A stretch of DNA of 64,000 bases from a virus. Its lineage: Duplodnaviria > Caudoviricetes. Shown here in pieces: positions 23,080 to 37,511 of this stretch. The DNA lies in the IMG/VR virus record IMGVR_UViG_3300033075_001536, positions 32,001 to 96,000 of that record; one strand, 5' to 3'. A program made the position numbers and the translations under genes. How positions within the stretch are numbered: the stretch's first letter is position 1; every line of letters begins with the position of its first letter. The notes beneath the pieces were generated by a model. The model saw nothing but the letters and a program-made list of their open reading frames with translations. It was not told the origin of the DNA and ran no database searches.

Positions 23080-24348
23080 ATGAAATTGACAGGATACAAT
23101 GAATTTATTTTAGAGAACCAAATCGCAGAACTACTAGTGGAATCACAAATTGTTTATTCGCAGAAATTTCTTAACCTATTAAACACTATGGGTAGAACTC
23201 CAATAGTTCCTAAACTATTGACACTACAATCACAAGATAAAGAAATTCAACAAAATTATATTGATGTTGGTGGTGCTAAAGACACCGTCACTTTCACACC
23301 AGAAAGAAAGGTTAGAGAGCTAACTGGCAATAGAAATATTGTCTATGTTAGACAAGGAACTGGTGGGTGTTTAAGTCACATGAGTCGAAATCGATTTATT
23401 TTTGGAAGACTTGGATATACACCAGAGGGTGGATACATTACTGATGAGACACAATCACCACACTACAAACCACAAGAAGGAGAAGTTGGTAAAATTGTTG
23501 CTACTACACAAGGTATTAAAGCTCCCATTCAGACCTATGTCTTATTTGAGTGTACCGAAGGTGCTAATAAAGGTAAACAGTGTGTTATTAATAGAAGAAA
23601 GTTGAATGAAAGAGATGATACCTTTTCACAGATTTGGACAACTCAAAGAAATTCAATTAAAGTTGGAAGACTTGCAAGAGCTTTGATAACTCTACTCGGA
23701 GAAACTGTTACTGATGCTCAAGTAGAAGACTTTGTAAACAAATACAAATCTGCCTATGATGTAATGAATGATGCTTTCTCAAGATTTGATATTGTCGAAG
23801 GAAATAAAATTGCTTACTGGTATAACTATGAAAGATATGAGGATGAAAATGAAGGTGTTTTAGGATCTTCTTGTATGAAAAATGCTAGTTCTAGTTGGCT
23901 TAAAATTTATACAAAAAATCCAGAACAATGTAAATTAGTAATTTTGTATTCTGATGCTGGATCTATTGTGGATGGTAAATTTAAATCTGAAAAGATTAGA
24001 GGAAGAGCAATTCTATGGAAAACAGATCAAGGTGATATGTTTATGGAAAGAATCTATACCAAAGATGATTCTGATGTTGATTTATATAAACAATTTTGCT
24101 TCCACAATGGTTGGTGGTGTAGAACTCGTCAACAATATGGAACCGAATTCCAAGTTGAGAATGGTCACCAAACCAAAACAGCTCAATATGTAGTTACATT
24201 AGCAGAGTGTGATTTTAATCACTATCCATTTGTTGATTCTCTATGTTATTTGAATACATCAACTAAGAAAATATCCAATGTTCGGAGCTTAGTCTCTCCA
24301 GATAGAGTTATACAAAATACGGGTGGTGGATATAGTCCGTGTAGATAA
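23080..24348 (+). CDS. CTS-like-tagged protein of the SCM/RA(I/L)LW/M(D/E)RIY phage family
   Basis: MKLTGYNEFILEN; LGSSCM; GRAILW; FMERIY; YPFVDS; paralog of 44495..46162. Confidence 0.8.
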   Translation: MKLTGYNEFILENQIAELLVESQIVYSQKFLNLLNTMGRTPIVPKLLTLQSQDKEIQQNYIDVGGAKDTVTFTPERKVRELTGNRNIVYVRQGTGGCLSHMSRNRFIFGRLGYTPEGGYITDETQSPHYKPQEGEVGKIVATTQGIKAPIQTYVLFECTEGANKGKQCVINRRKLNERDDTFSQIWTTQRNSIKVGRLARALITLLGETVTDAQVEDFVNKYKSAYDVMNDAFSRFDIVEGNKIAYWYNYERYEDENEGVLGSSCMKNASSSWLKIYTKNPEQCKLVILYSDAGSIVDGKFKSEKIRGRAILWKTDQGDMFMERIYTKDDSDVDLYKQFCFHNGWWCRTRQQYGTEFQVENGHQTKTAQYVVTLAECDFNHYPFVDSLCYLNTSTKKISNVRSLVSPDRVIQNTGGGYSPCR

Positions 24349-24415
24349 TACTTGAATTTATTTAAATTTAAACACTTTTAATTTTTTACTTATTTTTAAT
24401 TAAATATATAATTTA

Positions 24416-24664
24416 ATGACTAGTTCAACCAAAGAAGAATTGTCGAATACTATTAAAATAATGGGTATAGATACCAATGAAATAGAGGTAGATATAACTC
24501 TCGGTGGACTTTTTTTTAACACCGTAGAACTTGTTCCAGAAGAAGATAAGATTATTCTTCATTATTTTGAAGATAACTATGATTATGAGTTTGACTTTGA
24601 TGACTTTGATGAAGAGAATCAAAAACAAATCTATAATTTGATTTCAATAACTTTACTAAATTAA
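24416..24664 (+). CDS. Small acidic hypothetical protein
   Basis: Late box upstream; D/E-rich. Confidence 0.65.
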   Translation: MTSSTKEELSNTIKIMGIDTNEIEVDITLGGLFFNTVELVPEEDKIILHYFEDNYDYEFDFDDFDEENQKQIYNLISITLLN

Positions 24665-24781
24665 TTTATAAAAAATCCACTAATCTATAAACTTTATTAA
24701 TTTAATATCATATATACAAAGATAATTTATCGGAAACTATTTTTTGACTAAGACTACTTAGTTCAAAAAAAAAATTTCAAA

Positions 24782-25666
24782 ATGGTAAAAGAAAAGAAGA
24801 TTTCAGCTCGACCTTACGAGCAAACAATGATTAAGCCTCTAGATTTTGACAAAATGACTCAAAAATTAAGAGGTTTTTTTATGCCACTTGGCTTTAAAGA
24901 AACATTTCCACAACCTAGAGTATCTATTCTAGCAGCCTGTGAGGATCCAAAAACAATTAGAAAGTACACATTTTCTGGAACAGAATGGCCTCTCATTCAA
25001 ACCAATCAAATGTGGTTAGAACATGACATTTTAAAAGAACCAGAATTGGAAGGTGTTTTTTGTTTATCTACCTCATATAGAGACGAGCCAAATCCAATAG
25101 AAGGAAGACACAATAAAATATTCCCAATGTTTGAAGCGGAGCACCTTGGAGATTACGAACATTTATTAAAAACATTATCAGACTTATGTGTTCACCTAGG
25201 ATTTGTCAAATCAACAAAAGATATTCCATTTTTTACTTATGATGAGCTTTGTGAAAAATATGGAACTTTAATACTTGAATCTGAACACGAAACAAAAATG
25301 TGGGAGGAGTATGGTGATGTGGTTGCAATCACACATTTCCCTCAACGAACAAGTCCATTTTGGAACATGAAATCAATTGGCAAAAATAAACACGGTGAAA
25401 AAATATATGCAAAATGTGATTTCATTATTTGTGGACAAGAAACCATTGGATCTGCTGAAAGAGATACAGACATTGAAACGATGAGGAAAAATTTCCATAC
25501 TATTTCTGGTGGGGAATATGCTAAAATTTTGTTTGATCAATTCTCAGAGGAAAGAGTAGAGTCAGAACTAGAAGACTTCTTTAGTTTACCAATGGTTGAG
25601 AGATGGGGATTTGGGATGGGACTTACAAGACTTCATAGAGCTTTAAAAATTAAAAATCTGATTTAA
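24782..25666 (+). CDS. Class IIb aaRS catalytic-core paralog (Asp/AsnRS-like; archaeal-type asparagine synthetase AS-AR-like), no anticodon-binding domain
   Basis: Motif 2 YRDEPNPIEGRH..IFPMFEAE; ETIGSAER; motif 3 GFGMGLTRL; only 294 aa. Confidence 0.85.
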   Translation: MVKEKKISARPYEQTMIKPLDFDKMTQKLRGFFMPLGFKETFPQPRVSILAACEDPKTIRKYTFSGTEWPLIQTNQMWLEHDILKEPELEGVFCLSTSYRDEPNPIEGRHNKIFPMFEAEHLGDYEHLLKTLSDLCVHLGFVKSTKDIPFFTYDELCEKYGTLILESEHETKMWEEYGDVVAITHFPQRTSPFWNMKSIGKNKHGEKIYAKCDFIICGQETIGSAERDTDIETMRKNFHTISGGEYAKILFDQFSEERVESELEDFFSLPMVERWGFGMGLTRLHRALKIKNLI

Positions 25667-25680
25667 TCAGGTTTTTTTTT
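25652..25680 (+). terminator. Possible weak intrinsic terminator
   Basis: ctgat-tta-atcag hairpin followed by T9. Confidence 0.45.
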
Positions 25681-25693
25681 GTGAATATTTTAA

Positions 25694-25792
25694 TGTTGGG
25701 TGGTGAAATTGGCAAACACACCGTACTGTCTATACGGCATGGATAAAGGAATAAAAACCTCCATATACATCGTTCGAATCGTGTCCCAACAG
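25694..25792 (+). tRNA. Atypical tRNA-Asp(GTC) with long variable arm
   Basis: Acceptor TGTTGGG/CCCAACA with G73; D arm GTG-AAATTGGCAAA-CAC; anticodon stem CCGTA/TACGG with loop CT-GTC-TA; extra arm ATGGA...TCCAT; TTCGAAT T-loop with bulged T-stem; no encoded CCA. Confidence 0.8.
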
Positions 25793-25830
25793 CTGTAGAA
25801 AAAGGTTTTGAAAATTTAATATATAAAATT

Positions 25831-26487
25831 ATGAAACCATTGTTTGATATCAATGATTATAAGAATATAAAATGTTTAGAATTTGAATGTGAATTTTGTG
25901 GAAAGTCATTTGCTCCTTTAAGGAGAAATGCAATACAATCTATTCGTAAAGTTCAAAATGTTCAATTCTGTTCTACTATTTGTAGAATAAATGCTCGTGT
26001 AGAAAAAATAGAAATACCTTGTTCTAATTGTAATAAATTGGTGTATAGAACAAGCTCACACTTTAAAAAAAGCAAAAATAAACGGGCTTTTTGCTCAAAA
26101 TCTTGTTCAGCAATTTATAATAATACCCATAAAGCCTATGGAACAAGACGAAGTAAATTAGAAGCATGGATAGAAAAGAATTTAAAAGATAGATATAATT
26201 TTGAAATAATATTTAACGGAAAAGAAGAAATTAATAGCGAGTTAGATATTTTTATACCGAGTTTAAAATTGGCATTTGAATTAAGCGGAATTTTTCATTA
26301 CGAGCCAATTTATGGAATTGAAAAATTAAATATGGTAAAAAATAATGATAATAGAAAATTTCAAGCTTGTTTAGAAAAAGGAATAAAATTGTGTATAATT
26401 GATACTTCAAATAGTAAAAAATTTAAACCAGAAAGAGATAAAAAATATTTAAATATTATAGAAAAAATAATAGACTCAAAAAATTAA
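25831..26487 (+). CDS. Zn-finger plus PD-(D/E)XK (Vsr/DUF559-like) putative homing endonuclease
   Basis: CEFC/FCS..C repeats; ELDIFIPSLKLAFELSG..HY; late box upstream. Confidence 0.8.
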   Translation: MKPLFDINDYKNIKCLEFECEFCGKSFAPLRRNAIQSIRKVQNVQFCSTICRINARVEKIEIPCSNCNKLVYRTSSHFKKSKNKRAFCSKSCSAIYNNTHKAYGTRRSKLEAWIEKNLKDRYNFEIIFNGKEEINSELDIFIPSLKLAFELSGIFHYEPIYGIEKLNMVKNNDNRKFQACLEKGIKLCIIDTSNSKKFKPERDKKYLNIIEKIIDSKN

Positions 26488-26517
26488 ACCATAAAAACAT
26501 AAAATTAAATTGAGTGA

Positions 26518-26724
26518 TTATAAATTTGACCAAGTTTGATGACTAACAATACCATCTACTTCTATTCCAGCAGATTTTTGGAATTTAGTTACCGATATTA
26601 ATAAATTTTGTGAAAAATTTTCATCTATTTTACCGGTGAAAAGTCCCTTCTCTTTTAATTTAGTTTGGAGATATCTAACATCTTCTCCAGAATCACCTAG
26701 TTTAAGAGTCCTTTTTAGCTTCAT
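26518..26724 (-). CDS. Stand-alone peptidoglycan-binding domain (PG_binding_1)
   Basis: LKLGDSGEDVRYLQ..L...G...ID..F......V..FQ...GI.VDGIV...TW. Confidence 0.85.
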   Translation of the reverse strand: MKLKRTLKLGDSGEDVRYLQTKLKEKGLFTGKIDENFSQNLLISVTKFQKSAGIEVDGIVSHQTWSNL

Positions 26725-27217
26725 ATCTTTCTTTATTTTTTTGATCCATAAATGCTTTTAAATCTTCATATGAAACAGCTCCTGGGTTTTTAAACAACGC
26801 CTCAGCATTGGCTTTTTTCTTCTCATCCTCTTTTCTTTTTTGACCGTTTAGAGATCTTTCCTCTATTTTCTCATCTAGCTCTTTTAATAGACATCCTAGA
26901 TAGGCATCAATTCCCTTTTCATTTAGTATTATTTTACTAAACTCTAAAATATATTCTTCATTTTTCTCAGTATAGATTGCTAATTTTGAATCGGTAATAT
27001 AATAATCCACATAGAAATGTAAATCTCCAATAATACCTTGTCCATAAATAGTCGTCTTGTATAAATTGTTATAGAAAAAAGCAAATCCATCTTTATCAAA
27101 ATTTTTACGATTTCCAGAATTATCCGGCATCGTTGCAGTATATCCTAGGGACATTTTAAAATATTTTGATTTCTTTACTTCTTGAATAATTTGTAGGTTG
27201 GTAACAATGCTATACAT
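26702..27217 (-). CDS. Hypothetical protein
   Basis: 171-aa ORF with late box. Confidence 0.7.
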   Translation of the reverse strand: MYSIVTNLQIIQEVKKSKYFKMSLGYTATMPDNSGNRKNFDKDGFAFFYNNLYKTTIYGQGIIGDLHFYVDYYITDSKLAIYTEKNEEYILEFSKIILNEKGIDAYLGCLLKELDEKIEERSLNGQKRKEDEKKKANAEALFKNPGAVSYEDLKAFMDQKNKERYEAKKDS

Positions 27218-27232
27218 GAATGTATATATTCT

Positions 27233-27793
27233 TTACTCTGTTGTTTCGATGGAAAATTCCTCATCTTCTTCACCAAAATCCTTATCCAATTCTAATTTTA
27301 GTTCAATTAATTTATCTTCGTTTAGGTCTTTAATTTTAATTGTTTTAGAAACTTGTCCAATTAATTCGTTGTTTTTGTCTTGATCATATTTCTTAAATTT
27401 AACATAACAATTTTCTATATCCTTCCAAGAAAAATCTTTTTCTTTATCTTCTGGTATAGCATCTTTTAGTTGAATCATGACAAATAGATTATAGAAATAT
27501 TTAGCATCAGTAAATTTAAAAGTTACAGAATCATATTGTTTAGAATATTTAGAAATTTCTGAGGATTCTAGTCTTAGATTTAAATCCTTAAAATTCATCT
27601 TATCACCTTTTTCTTTTTTTTCACCTTTAGCCTGAGCATCTGCCAATGTTTCAACTTTCTCAGGTTCTCCTTCGGATTCACCAAAGTAAGAATCTATTTT
27701 TGTTTTTATTTGTTGCAAGGCAGTGGATACATAGGTCTCTGGAGTATCTTGGAAATTCTCTAAAACAAATTGTTTATATTTTACGATCTTCAT
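27233..27793 (-). CDS. Acidic CTS-like-tagged hypothetical protein
   Basis: MKIVKYKQFVLEN. Confidence 0.75.
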   Translation of the reverse strand: MKIVKYKQFVLENFQDTPETYVSTALQQIKTKIDSYFGESEGEPEKVETLADAQAKGEKKEKGDKMNFKDLNLRLESSEISKYSKQYDSVTFKFTDAKYFYNLFVMIQLKDAIPEDKEKDFSWKDIENCYVKFKKYDQDKNNELIGQVSKTIKIKDLNEDKLIELKLELDKDFGEEDEEFSIETTE

Positions 27794-27799
27794 ATTTTT

Positions 27800-27829
27800 T
27801 ATATATTAAAATTCATAAATCAATATATA
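27800..27829. promoter_or_regulatory. Divergent AATATATA boxes
   Basis: tatatatt 27800-27807; aatatata 27822-27829. Confidence 0.65.
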
Positions 27830-27833
27830 AGTA

Positions 27834-28268
27834 ATGTTAAAATATGATAAATTTATAATTGAGAAGTTATGGAAGGACATTGAAGAGCTTGGATACATTC
27901 TATCAGATGAAAATATCCACCACACTATTGTTCAATATCATGCTGAATTTGATTGGAGAATTAAAAGTGGTATAGGAGAAGTTTTAAAAATGGGTCGTAT
28001 TATTAGGCGTTTACTTGGATCAGAATTATTTACAAATTTGGAAATTTCTAATGTAATAAGGAAAATAAATAAAAACCAAAATTATTTAGGAACAATAATT
28101 ATACACCCACAAAATACAGGATTTTCATACATCACATCTAAATGGTTCAGAAATATTGACGATGATCCAAACTATCTAGAATACTTGGATAGAGTGGAGG
28201 AGACCATCCAAGGGTATGGATTCAAACTAGAAATAGATAATAAGGTATTTCTCAATATTTTTAAATAA
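27834..28268 (+). CDS. CTS-like-tagged paralog-family protein with inserted K.GR..R.L module
   Basis: MLKYDKFIIEK; DIEELGYILSDE; LKMGRIIRRLL; EYLDRVEE..QGYGF. Confidence 0.75.
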   Translation: MLKYDKFIIEKLWKDIEELGYILSDENIHHTIVQYHAEFDWRIKSGIGEVLKMGRIIRRLLGSELFTNLEISNVIRKINKNQNYLGTIIIHPQNTGFSYITSKWFRNIDDDPNYLEYLDRVEETIQGYGFKLEIDNKVFLNIFK

Positions 28269-28279
28269 TATATAAGATC

Positions 28280-29041
28280 ATGAAATATTTAAAACTATTT
28301 GAGGGATTTTCCAAAGGTCCAGAATTTAAAGTTACAAAATTAGAACTGTCTCCAGATAAAGAAGGATTTGTGGAAGCTACCATTGAATGGAGTACAGAAA
28401 AAAGAATTCTAGAAATGGAAGATTATTATTTCCTTGCTTATATTCAAAAAGAAAATGAGAATTTAAAAGCATATATAAGTGGTCTAAAAGGAGAATCTCC
28501 AGAAATGATATTGGGTGACTTACAAGAAATTGGGGTTTCTTTAAAACCAATTATGCAAAAATATGTGGATGAAAAAATGACTATGGAAGAATTCGAAAAA
28601 TTAAATTGGGATCCTTCTCAAGTTTCGGATGCTGATGTTAAAGGTATTTTTGATGATGAAGATGGTGATGTTGGATTATTAGAAGAAGGTTGGAAAAGTT
28701 GGGTCGCTGGTGCTTTATTATTTTTAACATCTTGTGATAGTGTTACTATTAAGGACAAAACAGGAAAAGAACTTCCTGTACATTATGTTGATGAAAAATA
28801 TACCACCACCGGAACAATTATTGAACTAACAAAAATGCCAATGAAAAATGCCACTCAATATGAAATTACTGTAAAAGACGATAGTACTGGTAATAACATA
28901 TATATAGAAAAACACGCAATGAATCCATTTCCGGATGATGAAACTCCAGCAAATTGGTGGATGTCTAATCTAAAGGAAGGATCTAGAGTAAAAATAGTTT
29001 GTAGAGATGATTGTAAAGTTTATCTACTTGATAAAAAATAA
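28280..29041 (+). CDS. CTS-like-tagged protein with internal lipoprotein-type signal and OB-like C-terminus
   Basis: MKYLKLFEGF; internal LLEEGWKSWVAGALLFLTSC. Confidence 0.75.
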   Translation: MKYLKLFEGFSKGPEFKVTKLELSPDKEGFVEATIEWSTEKRILEMEDYYFLAYIQKENENLKAYISGLKGESPEMILGDLQEIGVSLKPIMQKYVDEKMTMEEFEKLNWDPSQVSDADVKGIFDDEDGDVGLLEEGWKSWVAGALLFLTSCDSVTIKDKTGKELPVHYVDEKYTTTGTIIELTKMPMKNATQYEITVKDDSTGNNIYIEKHAMNPFPDDETPANWWMSNLKEGSRVKIVCRDDCKVYLLDKK

Positions 29042-29074
29042 AAAACCCTCACAAATTTCTCTGTAAGGGTCTTT
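29041..29074. terminator. Possible bidirectional terminator between convergent genes
   Basis: accct-c-aca / tgt-a-agggt imperfect stem flanked by A and T runs. Confidence 0.45.
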
Positions 29075-29093
29075 CATCCAAGCTGTTGAAAAA

Positions 29094-30992
29094 TTATTCT
29101 TTTACTTCTTCAAAAGTAGCATCTTGAACATTTTCAAATCCACCATTTGGATTCTCTGTGGTTTGAGGATCTTGTTGAGTGGTTTGTGTATTCTGATACA
29201 TTTTTGTGGAAATAGAATTCCAAGTTTCGGTTAACTTTTGTGTTGAAGAGTCGATAGAAGATAAATCTTTTGACTCATAAGCTTTCTTTAAATCCGCTAA
29301 AGCATCCTTTAGACTTGATTTATCTGATTCACTTAATTTTTCATCAAATTCCTTGATCTGCTTTTCAGTTGAAAAGATAAGATTGTCAGCTTGATTTAGC
29401 TTTTCAATTTTTTCTTTTTCTTGACGATCAGATTCAGCATTATCTTCAGCCTCCTTTTTCATACGAGCAACCTCTTCTTTTGAAAGTTGAGATCCACCTT
29501 CAATGCGAATTCTATTTTCTTTAGAAGTTGCCTTATCCTTTGCGGTAACCGATAGAATACCATTAGCATCAATGTCTAATGAAATTTCAATTTGTGGAAT
29601 ACCTCTTGGAGCTGGCATAATTCCTTCTAAGTGGAAACGACCCAAAGAACGATTGTCTTTAGCCATTGGTCTTTCACCTTGAAGAACATGAACCTCAACC
29701 GATGGTTGATTGTCAGAAGCAGTTGAGAATGTTTCTGATTTTTTGGTTGGAATAGTTGTGTTTGCTTCAATTAATTTGGTAAATACCCCACCCATCGTTT
29801 CGATACCAAGTGATAGTGGTGTTACATCAAGTAGCAAAACATCAGTAATATTTCCAGTTAAAACCGCCCCTTGAATAGCTGCTCCGATAGCAACTACCTC
29901 ATCTGGGTTAACAGATTTATTTGGTTTTTTACCAAAGAACTTTTCAACAGCTTCTTGAACAGCTGGAATTCTTGTAGAGCCACCTACTAAAATTACTTCT
30001 TCGATTTCAGATAATTTAATATCTGCGCTCTTGATAGCTGATTTGCAACATTTGATCGTTCTATCTACTAAAGCAGATGTCATTTGATCAAATTTAGCTC
30101 TTGTTAGAGTCTTTACATAGTGTAGTGGAACACCATCTAAAGCAGTGATATAAGGAAGATTGATCTCAGATTGTGTTGTTGAGGACAATTCAATCTTAGC
30201 TTTTTCAGCAGCCTCCTTTAATCTTTGAAGAGCCATTGGATCTTTTGAAAGGTCCATGTTGTGCTCTGATTTGAACTCAGAAACCATCCAATTAATAATT
30301 TCGTTGTCAAAGTCATCCCCACCAAGGTGTGTATCACCATCAGTTGATTTAACTTCAAATACTCCATCACCAATCTCTAGAACAGATATATCGAATGTTC
30401 CTCCTCCAAGATCATAAACGATAATTTTCTGATCTTTTTCTTTCTTATCAAGTCCATAAGCAAGTGCCGCAGCTGTTGGCTCATTGATAATTCTTTCCAC
30501 TTTAAGTCCAGCAATTTGACCAGCTTCAATAGTTGCTGTTCTCTCAGCATCACCGAAATAGGCTGGAACAGTGATAACTGCACGAGTTACTTCATGTCCT
30601 AAATAATCTTCAGCAGTTTTCTTCATTTTTTGAAGAATCATAGCTGAAATTTCTTGTGGGGTGAAGGTTCTATCACCAATTTCAACAGCTGGAACATTTT
30701 TTCCAACCTTAACTACTTTATACGGAACTCTTTTAATCTCATCCGAACAATGAGAAAAATCTTTTCCAATAAATCGCTTGATCGAATAAACTGTTTGTGT
30801 CGGGTTGGTAACAGCTTGTCTCTTTGCTGGATCACCAATTTTACGATCCTTATCAGTGAATCCAACTACTGACGGAGTTGTTCTTTTTCCTTCCGAATTT
30901 GTGATGATGATTGGTTCTCCATTCTCAACAACCGCAACAGCGCTGTTAGTGGTCCCCAAATCAATTCCCAGAATTACATTTTCTTTTGCCAT
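29094..30992 (-). CDS. dnaK: Chaperone DnaK (Hsp70)
   Basis: GIDLGTTNS; TVPAYF; DLGGGTFD; LVGGSTRIP; NPDEVVA. Confidence 0.98.
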
Positions 30993-35225: not shown

Positions 35226-36658
35226 ATAATTTCATCTCTTATTTCCATCCAAAGCCAAACAAACCTTTCAAATCCCTCATCCATTTCCTCTCCTTCCATG
35301 CATCTTTCAATAGTTGTTTTTCTTCTATGATAGTCATCTACACTACCAGCAACAAATAGCACAAATTCTTTCATAATAATATCATAACAACCAATCCATA
35401 TATCTGAATCTTTTCCAACTTTATTTTTATACCAAATATCAAAAAATTGATTTCCTCGATGATTTATCCTAAAATCTGGATACTCCTTCATTAAAGATCT
35501 ACTAGTTTCAATATACTTAGAAAACTCACCTTTAATTTCTGACTCATCTACTATTTCCTCAATATAGCTATTAACATCATTTTCATCCTCACCCAACCTT
35601 TTGTATATTTTAATTGGATTTTTTATTTCTTTTTTGGATTCTTTAATCATAATATTATTTGAAAATAAGACAGAAATTGTCATAGAATCAAATTGCCAAT
35701 ATATGTGAACATTTTTTAGCTTAAATCCATCGTCTTCTAATCTCTCACAAGCAATCATAAATTCTTCATCAGATTTTAACTTTATTTCCGATTCTTCACA
35801 AACTTTTGGAAGCCTATCTAAATAGGAATAGTCCGTATTTTCCTCTCTTTTCTTATGTAGTTTCCAATTAAACATTTTAGAGAATTGTTCATGTGGAACT
35901 TCAAATTCAACTCTAAACTCACATTGACCATTAAGAATATCTAACCTTTTCTTTTTATCCTTTAGACTTTTATATCGATGTTTTTTAACATATTCCTTTC
36001 TAAGCTCAACAAGATCACCAGAAACCTCCATTTTTGAATTGTGTATATCATGTTTATCCAAAAAATCCGTAAATATATTTTTAACATCTTCAAGTGATGG
36101 AATAGATATTTTTGATTCCATGGTTGCTTGATATCCACCAAATTCTCCTCTTTCTTTATACCTTTTAGCTTGACTGTCCATTTTTGAGAATCTAAAAACT
36201 ATTTCGTTATAATTGAAATTATTAAAAATCTTAATATCTGGATATCTTAAATAGTATCCAAGATCTTCCACTCTTTCTGATATATCCAATATCAAGTCTG
36301 AAGCATCATCGATATATTTTTTATGAGCATATTTATTTATATCATCATTAGCTCTATGAAACCCATTGAAATCTACATCACCTTTAAAAACTTTAAATTT
36401 TATCACAACTAGAAAGTGTTTTCTTAACAATAGTTCATCAAATGCAAGTTCTTTTTTAGCATGGAATACATATTTATTTAAATGCTCAGCAGTAAAATTT
36501 TTAACCACCTCAAATCCTTCGTGTAAACTAAAATGATCTAAATAATCTGTAAAAATATTTAAAATATCTTCATCATCAATTGGATGATTATCATCTTGCC
36601 AATTTCCATCCACCCATTTTTCACCAATAAAATCTTTATATTTATTCAGAATTGCCAT
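35222..36658 (-). CDS. CTS-like-tagged multidomain protein with two tandem family domains
   Basis: EDILNIFTDYLD...ERVEDLGY and EDVKNIFTDFLD...ERLEDDGF; internal TMES and IKES junctions. Confidence 0.8.
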   Translation of the reverse strand: MAILNKYKDFIGEKWVDGNWQDDNHPIDDEDILNIFTDYLDHFSLHEGFEVVKNFTAEHLNKYVFHAKKELAFDELLLRKHFLVVIKFKVFKGDVDFNGFHRANDDINKYAHKKYIDDASDLILDISERVEDLGYYLRYPDIKIFNNFNYNEIVFRFSKMDSQAKRYKERGEFGGYQATMESKISIPSLEDVKNIFTDFLDKHDIHNSKMEVSGDLVELRKEYVKKHRYKSLKDKKKRLDILNGQCEFRVEFEVPHEQFSKMFNWKLHKKREENTDYSYLDRLPKVCEESEIKLKSDEEFMIACERLEDDGFKLKNVHIYWQFDSMTISVLFSNNIMIKESKKEIKNPIKIYKRLGEDENDVNSYIEEIVDESEIKGEFSKYIETSRSLMKEYPDFRINHRGNQFFDIWYKNKVGKDSDIWIGCYDIIMKEFVLFVAGSVDDYHRRKTTIERCMEGEEMDEGFERFVWLWMEIRDEII

Positions 36659-37511
36659 TGGAACCTGGTCTTATTTTATAATATATCATAATTGCTAAAA
36701 TGAGTATATTTGTTCCATAGTTCATCATCATTGGTAGATCTAGTTTATCATAAACATATATCATAGCAAATAATTCACCAAATGCCCATAATAATAAAAA
36801 TGCCCATGACATTCCGTGTGAGTGTTTATCTTTATAGGAAGACCAGGCTTGTGGAATTCCACAAGATGCTAACAGGATAGAACCCAACCAACCCATTAAG
36901 GCAAATAAATCTTTTTTACTTAGGCCATTTGAAAGGTCCAAAATAGTTTCATCATTTAATTTTTCTATATTTTGATTTGGAATTTCATATCCATATTTTT
37001 CTTTCATATGAGACGTTAGGTTTCCGAAAAGCTCATTAAACCTAATAGAATCACCACCAGATTTAGCAACACTATCTATATTGGATAAAATTTTCGATAA
37101 AGTATCATCAGATTTTTTCATTGATTTTGAGTATTCCTCTGCTATTTCAGCTTGAAATTTCATTTTACGAACCCAAGCATCTAACTCTTTTTGTAGTTGA
37201 GTAGAATCCATTTTTTTGTACTTATCTGCTCTTCCAGGATCATTATACTCTTCGTTTGGAACTGCTTTATAATTTGATATATCATGATCATTGATATCAG
37301 ACATCGATTTTTGAAAATATCCATTTGGGTTAAGTGGGCTCATTGGGCTTAAAATATTTGTCACATTACTTGGATTGGAATAATCATATGGATTGGTGTA
37401 TTGCCCCTTTGAATCTGGCGAATTTAACAGAAGTGATCCAACTATTCCTAGCTTGGTCAATCCAGACTTAATTCCTTCATTATGTTCTTCATAGCTTTTT
37501 AGATATTTCAT
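36642..37511 (-). CDS. CTS-like-tagged protein with C-terminal PQ-loop (SemiSWEET-like) membrane domain
   Basis: MKYLKSYEEHNEG; GWLGSILLASCGIPQAW...K...GMSW.FL.LW..GE...Y...NY. Confidence 0.8.
   Translation of the reverse strand: MKYLKSYEEHNEGIKSGLTKLGIVGSLLLNSPDSKGQYTNPYDYSNPSNVTNILSPMSPLNPNGYFQKSMSDINDHDISNYKAVPNEEYNDPGRADKYKKMDSTQLQKELDAWVRKMKFQAEIAEEYSKSMKKSDDTLSKILSNIDSVAKSGGDSIRFNELFGNLTSHMKEKYGYEIPNQNIEKLNDETILDLSNGLSKKDLFALMGWLGSILLASCGIPQAWSSYKDKHSHGMSWAFLLLWAFGELFAMIYVYDKLDLPMMMNYGTNILILAIMIYYKIRPGSNGNSE

Follow-up and report, generated by a model that had tools for sequence, protein, structure and literature searches.

The window analysed here, a stretch of 64,000 nucleotides, is part of a 170,678-bp IMG/VR record, itself a fragment of a huge AT-rich phage (~29% G+C) whose nearest complete relatives are the uncultured phages LR756502 (642 kb) and LR745206 (634 kb). 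Positions 28280–29041 on the plus strand form a single open frame of 253 amino acids with 0 stops and 0 frameshifts. This ORF starts 11 nt past the stop of an upstream 144-aa gene and is convergent with the phage dnaK gene (29094–30992, minus strand). Its parts and its immediate downstream flank, in window coordinates, are listed below.

28280..29041, plus strand: the whole fused ORF, 253 aa plus stop; a 98%-identical variant, P0001, comes from another assembly
28280..28309, plus strand: N-terminal tag MKYLKLFEGF (residues 1–10), a motif found on about a quarter of the phage's ORFs
28310..28624, plus strand: folded N-domain (residues 11–115), a three-stranded sheet with five helices; a stand-alone family in relatives
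28625..28690, plus strand: disordered acidic linker (residues 116–137) ending in GLLEEG; it was once the tail end of the N-domain gene and holds the fusion junction
28691..28732, plus strand: displaced lipoprotein signal core (residues 138–151), W-K and then the uncharged SWVAGALLFLTS, which includes L-T-S of the lipobox
28733..29038, plus strand: predicted mature lipoprotein (residues 152–253), an all-beta barrel of OB-like type preceded by the lipobox Cys152
29045..29070, no strand assigned: hairpin, accctcaca / tgtaagggt with one mismatch, between the convergent target gene and dnaK; read from the sequence

On the minus strand a T-run comes after the hairpin, which is probably the terminator of dnaK and may be bidirectional; it is not among the reports of the terminator scan. 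The DnaK encoded here is full-length, its gene sharing 77% DNA identity with the dnaK genes of LR756502 and LR745206, and a DnaJ-like protein starting MTQKDYYEVLGV is encoded at G000:C1:23218–24264 (minus strand).

Bacterial-type lipoprotein precursors have a net positive n-region, and are modified with diacylglyceryl by Lgt and cleaved by LspA. Under a rule of the PROSITE PS51257 type, an uncharged hydrophobic stretch precedes a lipobox, [LVI][ASTVI][GAS]-Cys, whose cysteine lies at residues 15–35, and a Lys or Arg occurs among the first seven residues. In the target ORF, residues 133–153 read LLEE-GWKSWVAGALLFLTSC-D, in which Lys139, the sole basic residue of the n-region, is followed by an uncharged stretch of 12 residues (140–151, SWVAGALLFLTS) that runs into the lipobox L149-T150-S151-C152. 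The lipobox conforms to the rule and its cysteine is kept in all complete homologs; the uncharged stretch also conforms, measuring 10–15 residues in relatives. The position is at odds with it, as the cysteine stands at residue 152 in the target and in P0001, and at residue 375 in the homolog P0007. As had been read from the sequence originally, the signal sits behind a tagged and acidic N-terminal part: MKYLKLFEGF occupies residues 1–10, residues 1–137 carry a net charge of −16, and residues 100–137 contain 13 Asp/Glu versus 2 Lys/Arg. The 15 residues ahead of the h-region have a net charge of −6, compared with −1 to +2 in the stand-alone relatives, and the 15 residues after the cysteine have a net charge of 0. 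This pattern opposes the positive-inside rule and so argues against efficient direct export. The residue at +2 is Asp (CDS...), as it is in P0005, P0006, P0007, P0009 and P0017, a hint that under E. coli rules, possibly not those of the host, the product would be retained in the inner membrane.

To place this element against background, 227 ORFs of the 170,678-bp record were scanned for a hydrophobic stretch plus lipobox, which gave 4 matches, the expectation from shuffling the proteome 200 times being 0.11. Two of the four are classical N-terminal lipoproteins, one is the target element and one is a helix in a PQ-loop protein; this last, a second mid-protein 'lipobox' (window 36642–37511, minus strand), was rejected because it is helix 1 of the PQ-loop domain. 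The two classical lipoproteins are encoded by adjacent, untagged genes just past the end of the window (G000:C1:96002–96427 and 96661–97167; products starting MKKLLTIVLLVVASLSSC and MKKLIYLLTFIGLISITSC). Together with six such genes in LR756502, these untagged genes indicate that the clade also makes ordinary lipoproteins.

Both halves of the ORF have stand-alone relatives. An exhaustive HMMER search over 1.84 billion representatives and word-index searches returned 13, 3 and 2 matches, respectively. Five free-standing proteins of 135–154 aa are homologous to the N-terminal half: P0004 (136 aa, the closest at 90% identity, ending GLLDV), P0002 (146 aa, ending DPDFK), P0003 (145 aa, ending DPDFK), P0008 (135 aa, ending DDEPDDE) and P0010 (154 aa, ending GDDDKY). 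All five end 0–12 residues past an acidic GLL[D/E], the very motif that directly precedes the signal in the target; the contig behind P0004 measures 941 bp, and the C terminus of this protein might in principle be a contig end. The tail of this family has a conserved [G/D]-L-[L/M]-[D/E], often with a terminal D-P-D-F-K or D-D-K-Y (P0002, P0003 and P0010). By analogy, such an acidic, disordered tail may recall the interaction tails of single-strand-binding proteins.

Homologs of the C-terminal half comprise seven stand-alone proteins of 119–152 aa, namely P0005 (132 aa), P0006 (125 aa), P0009 (130 aa), P0011 (126 aa), P0015 (119 aa), P0017 (135 aa) and an ORF of LR756502 (580926–581384, 152 aa). 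In these proteins the WK, hydrophobic and lipobox element is N-terminal, right after a short tag of 12–16 residues, as in MKIKNWDQFKNVNES-WKSFVAGCMLLFAASC-DG. Six of the seven, which are the six on which the test was run (P0017 was left out), satisfy the full classical lipoprotein rule, with the cysteine at 29–32 and a Lys or Arg within the first 7 residues. The signal core of the target can be aligned to the signals at the N termini of P0005, P0006, P0009, P0015 and the LR756502 ORF. Because of this homology, we regard the target element as a real signal and not a chance match; the lipoprotein-type signal that had been proposed in mid-protein is genuine, and it also stands above the shuffled expectation.

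The family is sparsely represented. Neither the target ORF nor its homologs matched Pfam or PHROGs, tblastn against phage records found the LR756502 ORF alone, and scans for both halves gave no relatives in IMG/VR viral contigs and one locus in the metagenome, contig L003, on which P0005 is free-standing and adjoins a divergent cold-shock gene. A search for longer homologous proteins returned none, which is weak evidence. P0007, a 472-aa protein from a single 2.5-kb contig, has its Cys375 behind a long pre-sequence; it may be a second, independent form of this kind, in which case the architecture could perhaps be selected rather than accidental. In the metagenome protein P0009 (130 aa), similarity is lost after about residue 85 in a frameshift-like manner, and this scrambled C terminus indicates that at least one member of the family is decaying.

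Given that both halves are separate genes in relatives, the target ORF is a fusion in which the tail of gene 1 was joined at the point where the tag of gene 2 ended. P0001 has the identical 253-aa architecture and differs by four substitutions (P14T, P74S, V198I and S202I), none of which falls in the linker or the signal; an assembly chimera was rejected on this ground. A contig from the same sampling campaign is identical to the window across the junction, and among the sequencing runs it is this contig that covers the junction, the lake and river runs covering other pieces. The original prediction had named as a weak point that the locus might be an annotation fusion of two genes that are separate in relatives. 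In the evolutionary sense this is what we found, as the halves are separate genes; as an annotation artefact it fails, as the frame is continuous and P0001 is fused as well. On the strength of these alignments, we consider the fusion, with its displaced but intact lipoprotein-type signal at residues 138–152, to be established. The fusion is real and lineage-specific on these comparisons, and the mid-protein position of the signal is accordingly read as a recent derived state, not as a conserved design.

Other ways in which the C-domain might be produced separately were also considered. The stretch from Met102 to the signal lacks any in-frame ATG, GTG or TTG, and the homologs conserve neither Met100 nor Met102; an internal translation start for the C-domain was rejected on both counts. 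The lack of a start codon in this interval means that the C-domain can be made only within the fusion. A frameshift, or a tag hidden in another frame, was likewise rejected, the other frames containing neither a tag nor a stop-codon remnant. The idea of an internal promoter was dropped because sigma-70-like sites are not above chance; one TAnnTTTG occurs at 28645, and its background frequency is about 1 per kb.

The genomic setting is one of gene turnover. The ortholog of the gene at window 23080–24348 (41% identity, E 7e-109) directly flanks dnaK in both LR756502 and LR745206, so that window 24349–29093 (~4.7 kb) constitutes a variable island. The conserved gene that borders it encodes a tagged, 422-aa product. 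Besides the target, the island carries an AsnRS-like gene and a gene for an HNH homing endonuclease, a PG-binding mini-gene and three small ORFs, with tagged ones among its small ORFs. LR756502 and LR745206, the two complete relatives, lack the N-domain, and LR756502 carries the C-domain gene elsewhere in its genome. This distribution makes both halves patchy accessory genes, the setting in which fusions arise. Within the island, a 68-aa ORF (window 26518–26724, minus strand) consists of a PG_binding_1 domain only (E 6.6e-13). A similar N-terminal PG-binding domain occurs in LR745206 (L005:126–1139) on a 337-aa protein with an amidase-like C-part, and the 68-aa ORF may be a domain-only mini-gene or a remnant.

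The model of the N-part has pLDDT values of 79–91 over residues 11–110, and no Pfam, PHROG or fold match was found for this domain. Confidence is low for the MKYLKLFEGF tag and drops again in the linker, where pLDDT is below 50 for residues 116–125 and 134–138 and averages ~47 for residues 121–130. The C-part (residues 152–253, model m347e9e997119) is modelled as an all-beta barrel with a pLDDT of 75, and its best fold matches are the OB domains of PolC, AsnRS and SSB (Z 6.7–7.3, Foldseek E ~0.01). The OB fold is a closed beta-barrel of five strands, and these matches to it are generic, lying within the range of hits to a common arrangement, and indicate no function. A search of the ESM Atlas yielded weak leads only.

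We favour, with high though not full confidence, the reading that two small accessory genes of huge T4-like phages were naturally and recently fused in frame to give the ORF, and that its internal signal is most likely still used. Gene 1 codes for a tagged domain of the alpha/beta type, whose acidic, disordered tail closes with GLL[D/E]. Gene 2 codes for a small lipoprotein composed of a short N-terminal tag, W-K, a hydrophobic stretch of 12–13 residues, the lipobox cysteine and an OB-like barrel of about 100 aa. In the fusion gene 1 lost its end and gene 2 its tag, presumably through an in-frame deletion. The internal signal would then most likely insert into the Sec translocon in hairpin form, the N-domain remaining cytoplasmic, and host Lgt and LspA would lipidate and cut at Cys152, freeing the same lipoprotein as in the relatives; the strongly acidic flank probably lowers the efficiency of this processing. 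We infer, from the sequence features described above, that the signal of the fused protein either engages Sec in this way, as an internal hairpin, or works poorly. As for the lipoprotein itself, we would guess at a role in envelope modification or superinfection exclusion, because other phage lipoproteins act so.

Two readings would deprive the signal of its function as a lipoprotein signal. Bacteria commonly have proteins in which one membrane span follows a cytoplasmic N-domain of ~100–140 aa, and the segment is the sole hydrophobic stretch of the protein, so that it might serve as an uncleaved anchor in a bitopic, N-in/C-out protein resembling an anti-sigma factor, the lipobox being irrelevant. 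However, the uncharged stretch has 12 residues, short of the ~18 or more of a signal anchor, and its best 19-residue Kyte–Doolittle mean of 1.09 is h-region-like and weak for a stable span; the lipobox cysteine is, moreover, kept in all complete family members. We consider such an anchor very unlikely. Alternatively, the fusion could have disabled the gene, leaving a dead, displaced signal in an ORF that is a recent, tolerated defect of a dispensable accessory region. The fusion is rare (this lineage and P0007) and lies within a variable island, the flank ahead of the signal is strongly acidic, and P0009 shows that members of the family do decay. Against this, two variants that are four substitutions apart both preserve the frame, the signal and the lipobox, with no stop or indel, and we judge a dead gene to be extremely improbable.

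A further possibility derives from the original prediction, which held that maturation cleavage at LLEE in the phage head unmasks a hidden signal. In its full form, the tag and the lipoprotein signal would make up a two-step address. Loading into the prohead would depend on the tag; there, cleavage behind hydrophobic-x-Glu by a gp21-like protease, ahead of W-K, would leave a fragment with a minimal lipoprotein signal at its new N terminus. Once injected, this fragment would be exported and lipidated by Sec, Lgt and LspA of the next host, which would thus receive the lipoprotein before expression of any phage gene, the N-domain being a second cargo. Several observations speak for it. A hydrophobic-[N/E]-E lies 1–7 residues from the lysine of the signal in every member (VNES, FNES, HNEG, VNEE, FNEG, IEES and LLEE), direct export would be hampered by the acidic residues ahead of the fused signal, and MKNIKTYEDFVNEE, with which the LR756502 homolog starts, is similar to the leader of T4 IPIII, reportedly MKTYQEFIAE. 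In T4, cleavage by gp21 takes place after L/I-x-E, and a leader of 10 residues suffices to have a protein packaged and injected (PMC9026906). Yet [L/I]-x-E is not specific as a prohead-protease site: it occurs at 7 places in the target, against 4.1 ± 1.7 expected by composition, ending at E8, E45, E83, E135, E136, E182 and E233, two of which are inside the mature domain. Asp at P1 blocks T4 processing (PMC9026906), and of the four stand-alone members with a preserved LL[D/E] in the N-domain tail, three (P0004, P0002 and P0003) have Asp there. No gp21-type Peptidase_S77 gene was found on the 170-kb fragment; LR756502 has a weak Peptidase_S77-like match, which at 22.7 bits falls under the 27-bit cut-off. 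Six of the seven stand-alone relatives, those that were put to the N-terminal lipoprotein rule, pass it uncut, so unmasking is not needed there, which counts against the mechanism. The tag is also carried by 15–24% of all ORFs, including membrane proteins that are unlikely head cargo, tag and lipobox are combined in LR756502 only in the C-domain family of the target (the six other lipoproteins have plain MKK-type signals), and the hydrophobic signal peptide would need to remain soluble in a DNA-filled head. Maturation cleavage as the purpose of the displaced signal is unsupported, given the separate halves in relatives, the non-specific site and the missing protease gene; the signal is not demonstrably designed for protease unmasking, and we hold the two-step address to be improbable. 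A weaker form survives because every family member has hydrophobic-[N/E]-E before the signal, namely putative removal of the tag at this conserved motif. Peptides that span the candidate cleavage sites are GDVGLLEEGWKS and FKNVNESWKSF.

The tag is a widespread feature of these phages. A strict tag pattern occurs on 54 of the 227 ORFs of the record and on 148 of the 959 ORFs of LR756502 (15–24%), and among its carriers are an integral membrane protein of the PQ-loop type and, in LR756502, about five proteins whose tag leads straight into a transmembrane helix. The first of these (window 36642–37511, minus strand) is a tagged 289-aa protein that starts MKYLKSYEEHNEG, continues with a weakly hydrophobic stretch and has a C-terminal PQ-loop membrane domain (PF04193, E 1.5e-9). 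That an integral membrane protein is tagged argues against the tag being a head-loading signal only. The tagged LR756502 (W01) proteins with a transmembrane-like helix are encoded at 79261–79800 (minus), 383506–384339 (plus), 400000–400521 (plus), 531708–532832 (minus) and 544849–545472 (minus). In these proteins the helix follows an [I/C]NEE-type motif and a basic residue, as in MKNIKNYNDFCNEEVDMKKFTVPAKLLIGGALVGGLAAGI, and the order of tag, acidic, basic and hydrophobic elements is that of the lipoprotein family. The residues of the tag have nearly all A/T-only codons (M, K, Y, L, F, N and I), plus Glu, and the motif could partly reflect selection for an unstructured, AT-rich mRNA start in a genome of 29% G+C. 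In principle, a basic-hydrophobic tag could also be a chaperone-binding site, given the phage DnaK and DnaJ-like protein.

Phage lipoproteins with a signal for signal peptidase II include T5 Llp and Cor of phi80 and N15. The protein described here is like them in being a small phage protein in which a short hydrophobic stretch lies between a basic residue and a lipobox cysteine; its stand-alone relatives have this signal at the N terminus, and its gene lies in a variable accessory region. It differs in that no sequence or fold relationship to them was found, its mature domain being a generic OB-like barrel, and in that the signal comes after a 12–16-residue tag in the relatives and is displaced to 138–152 in the target. 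We know of no T4 internal protein with an export signal behind its leader. In T4, the capsid-targeting sequence of IPI, IPII, IPIII and Alt is removed by the gp21 prohead protease (PMC9026906, PMC3012670). The tag is comparable in that a short Met-Lys leader has aromatic or hydrophobic residues and a Glu similarly placed, followed by hydrophobic-x-Glu, in a clade that is T4-like; MKYLKLFEGF shares with the IPIII leader the Met-Lys, a hydrophobic or aromatic residue at positions 4 and 7, and Glu at position 8, although a likeness of this kind does not by itself make the tag a capsid-targeting sequence. By contrast with the T4 proteins, the tag marks about one protein in five, membrane proteins among them, and packaging and cleavage in this clade are putative. 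Flavivirus and alphavirus structural polyproteins contain internal signal peptides that are cut by host signal peptidase. The favoured fate of the fused protein would be similar, with a mid-chain signal that starts translocation of the downstream part and a host signal peptidase that splits the two; in the eukaryotic viruses, however, the enzyme is signal peptidase I of the ER, acting co-translationally, whereas the signal of the target is of the bacterial lipoprotein type. A search of the full-text literature found no paper on a natural internal lipoprotein-type signal in bacteria.

The family of tagged lipoproteins touches on the role of a tag that is carried by a fifth of the proteins of these phages. 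If the tag is a head-loading signal, the family carries two conflicting addresses and protease unmasking becomes testable; if the two-step address were true, the fused ORF would be a two-cargo polyprotein with a single tag. If the proteins of the family are simply exported, the tag cannot serve head loading alone. The fused ORF is a clear example of the reshuffling of accessory genes in huge phages, which has here placed what looks like a functional export signal behind the first 137 residues of a protein, and it provides a natural test case for whether the bacterial Sec, Lgt and LspA machinery can accept an internal lipoprotein signal.
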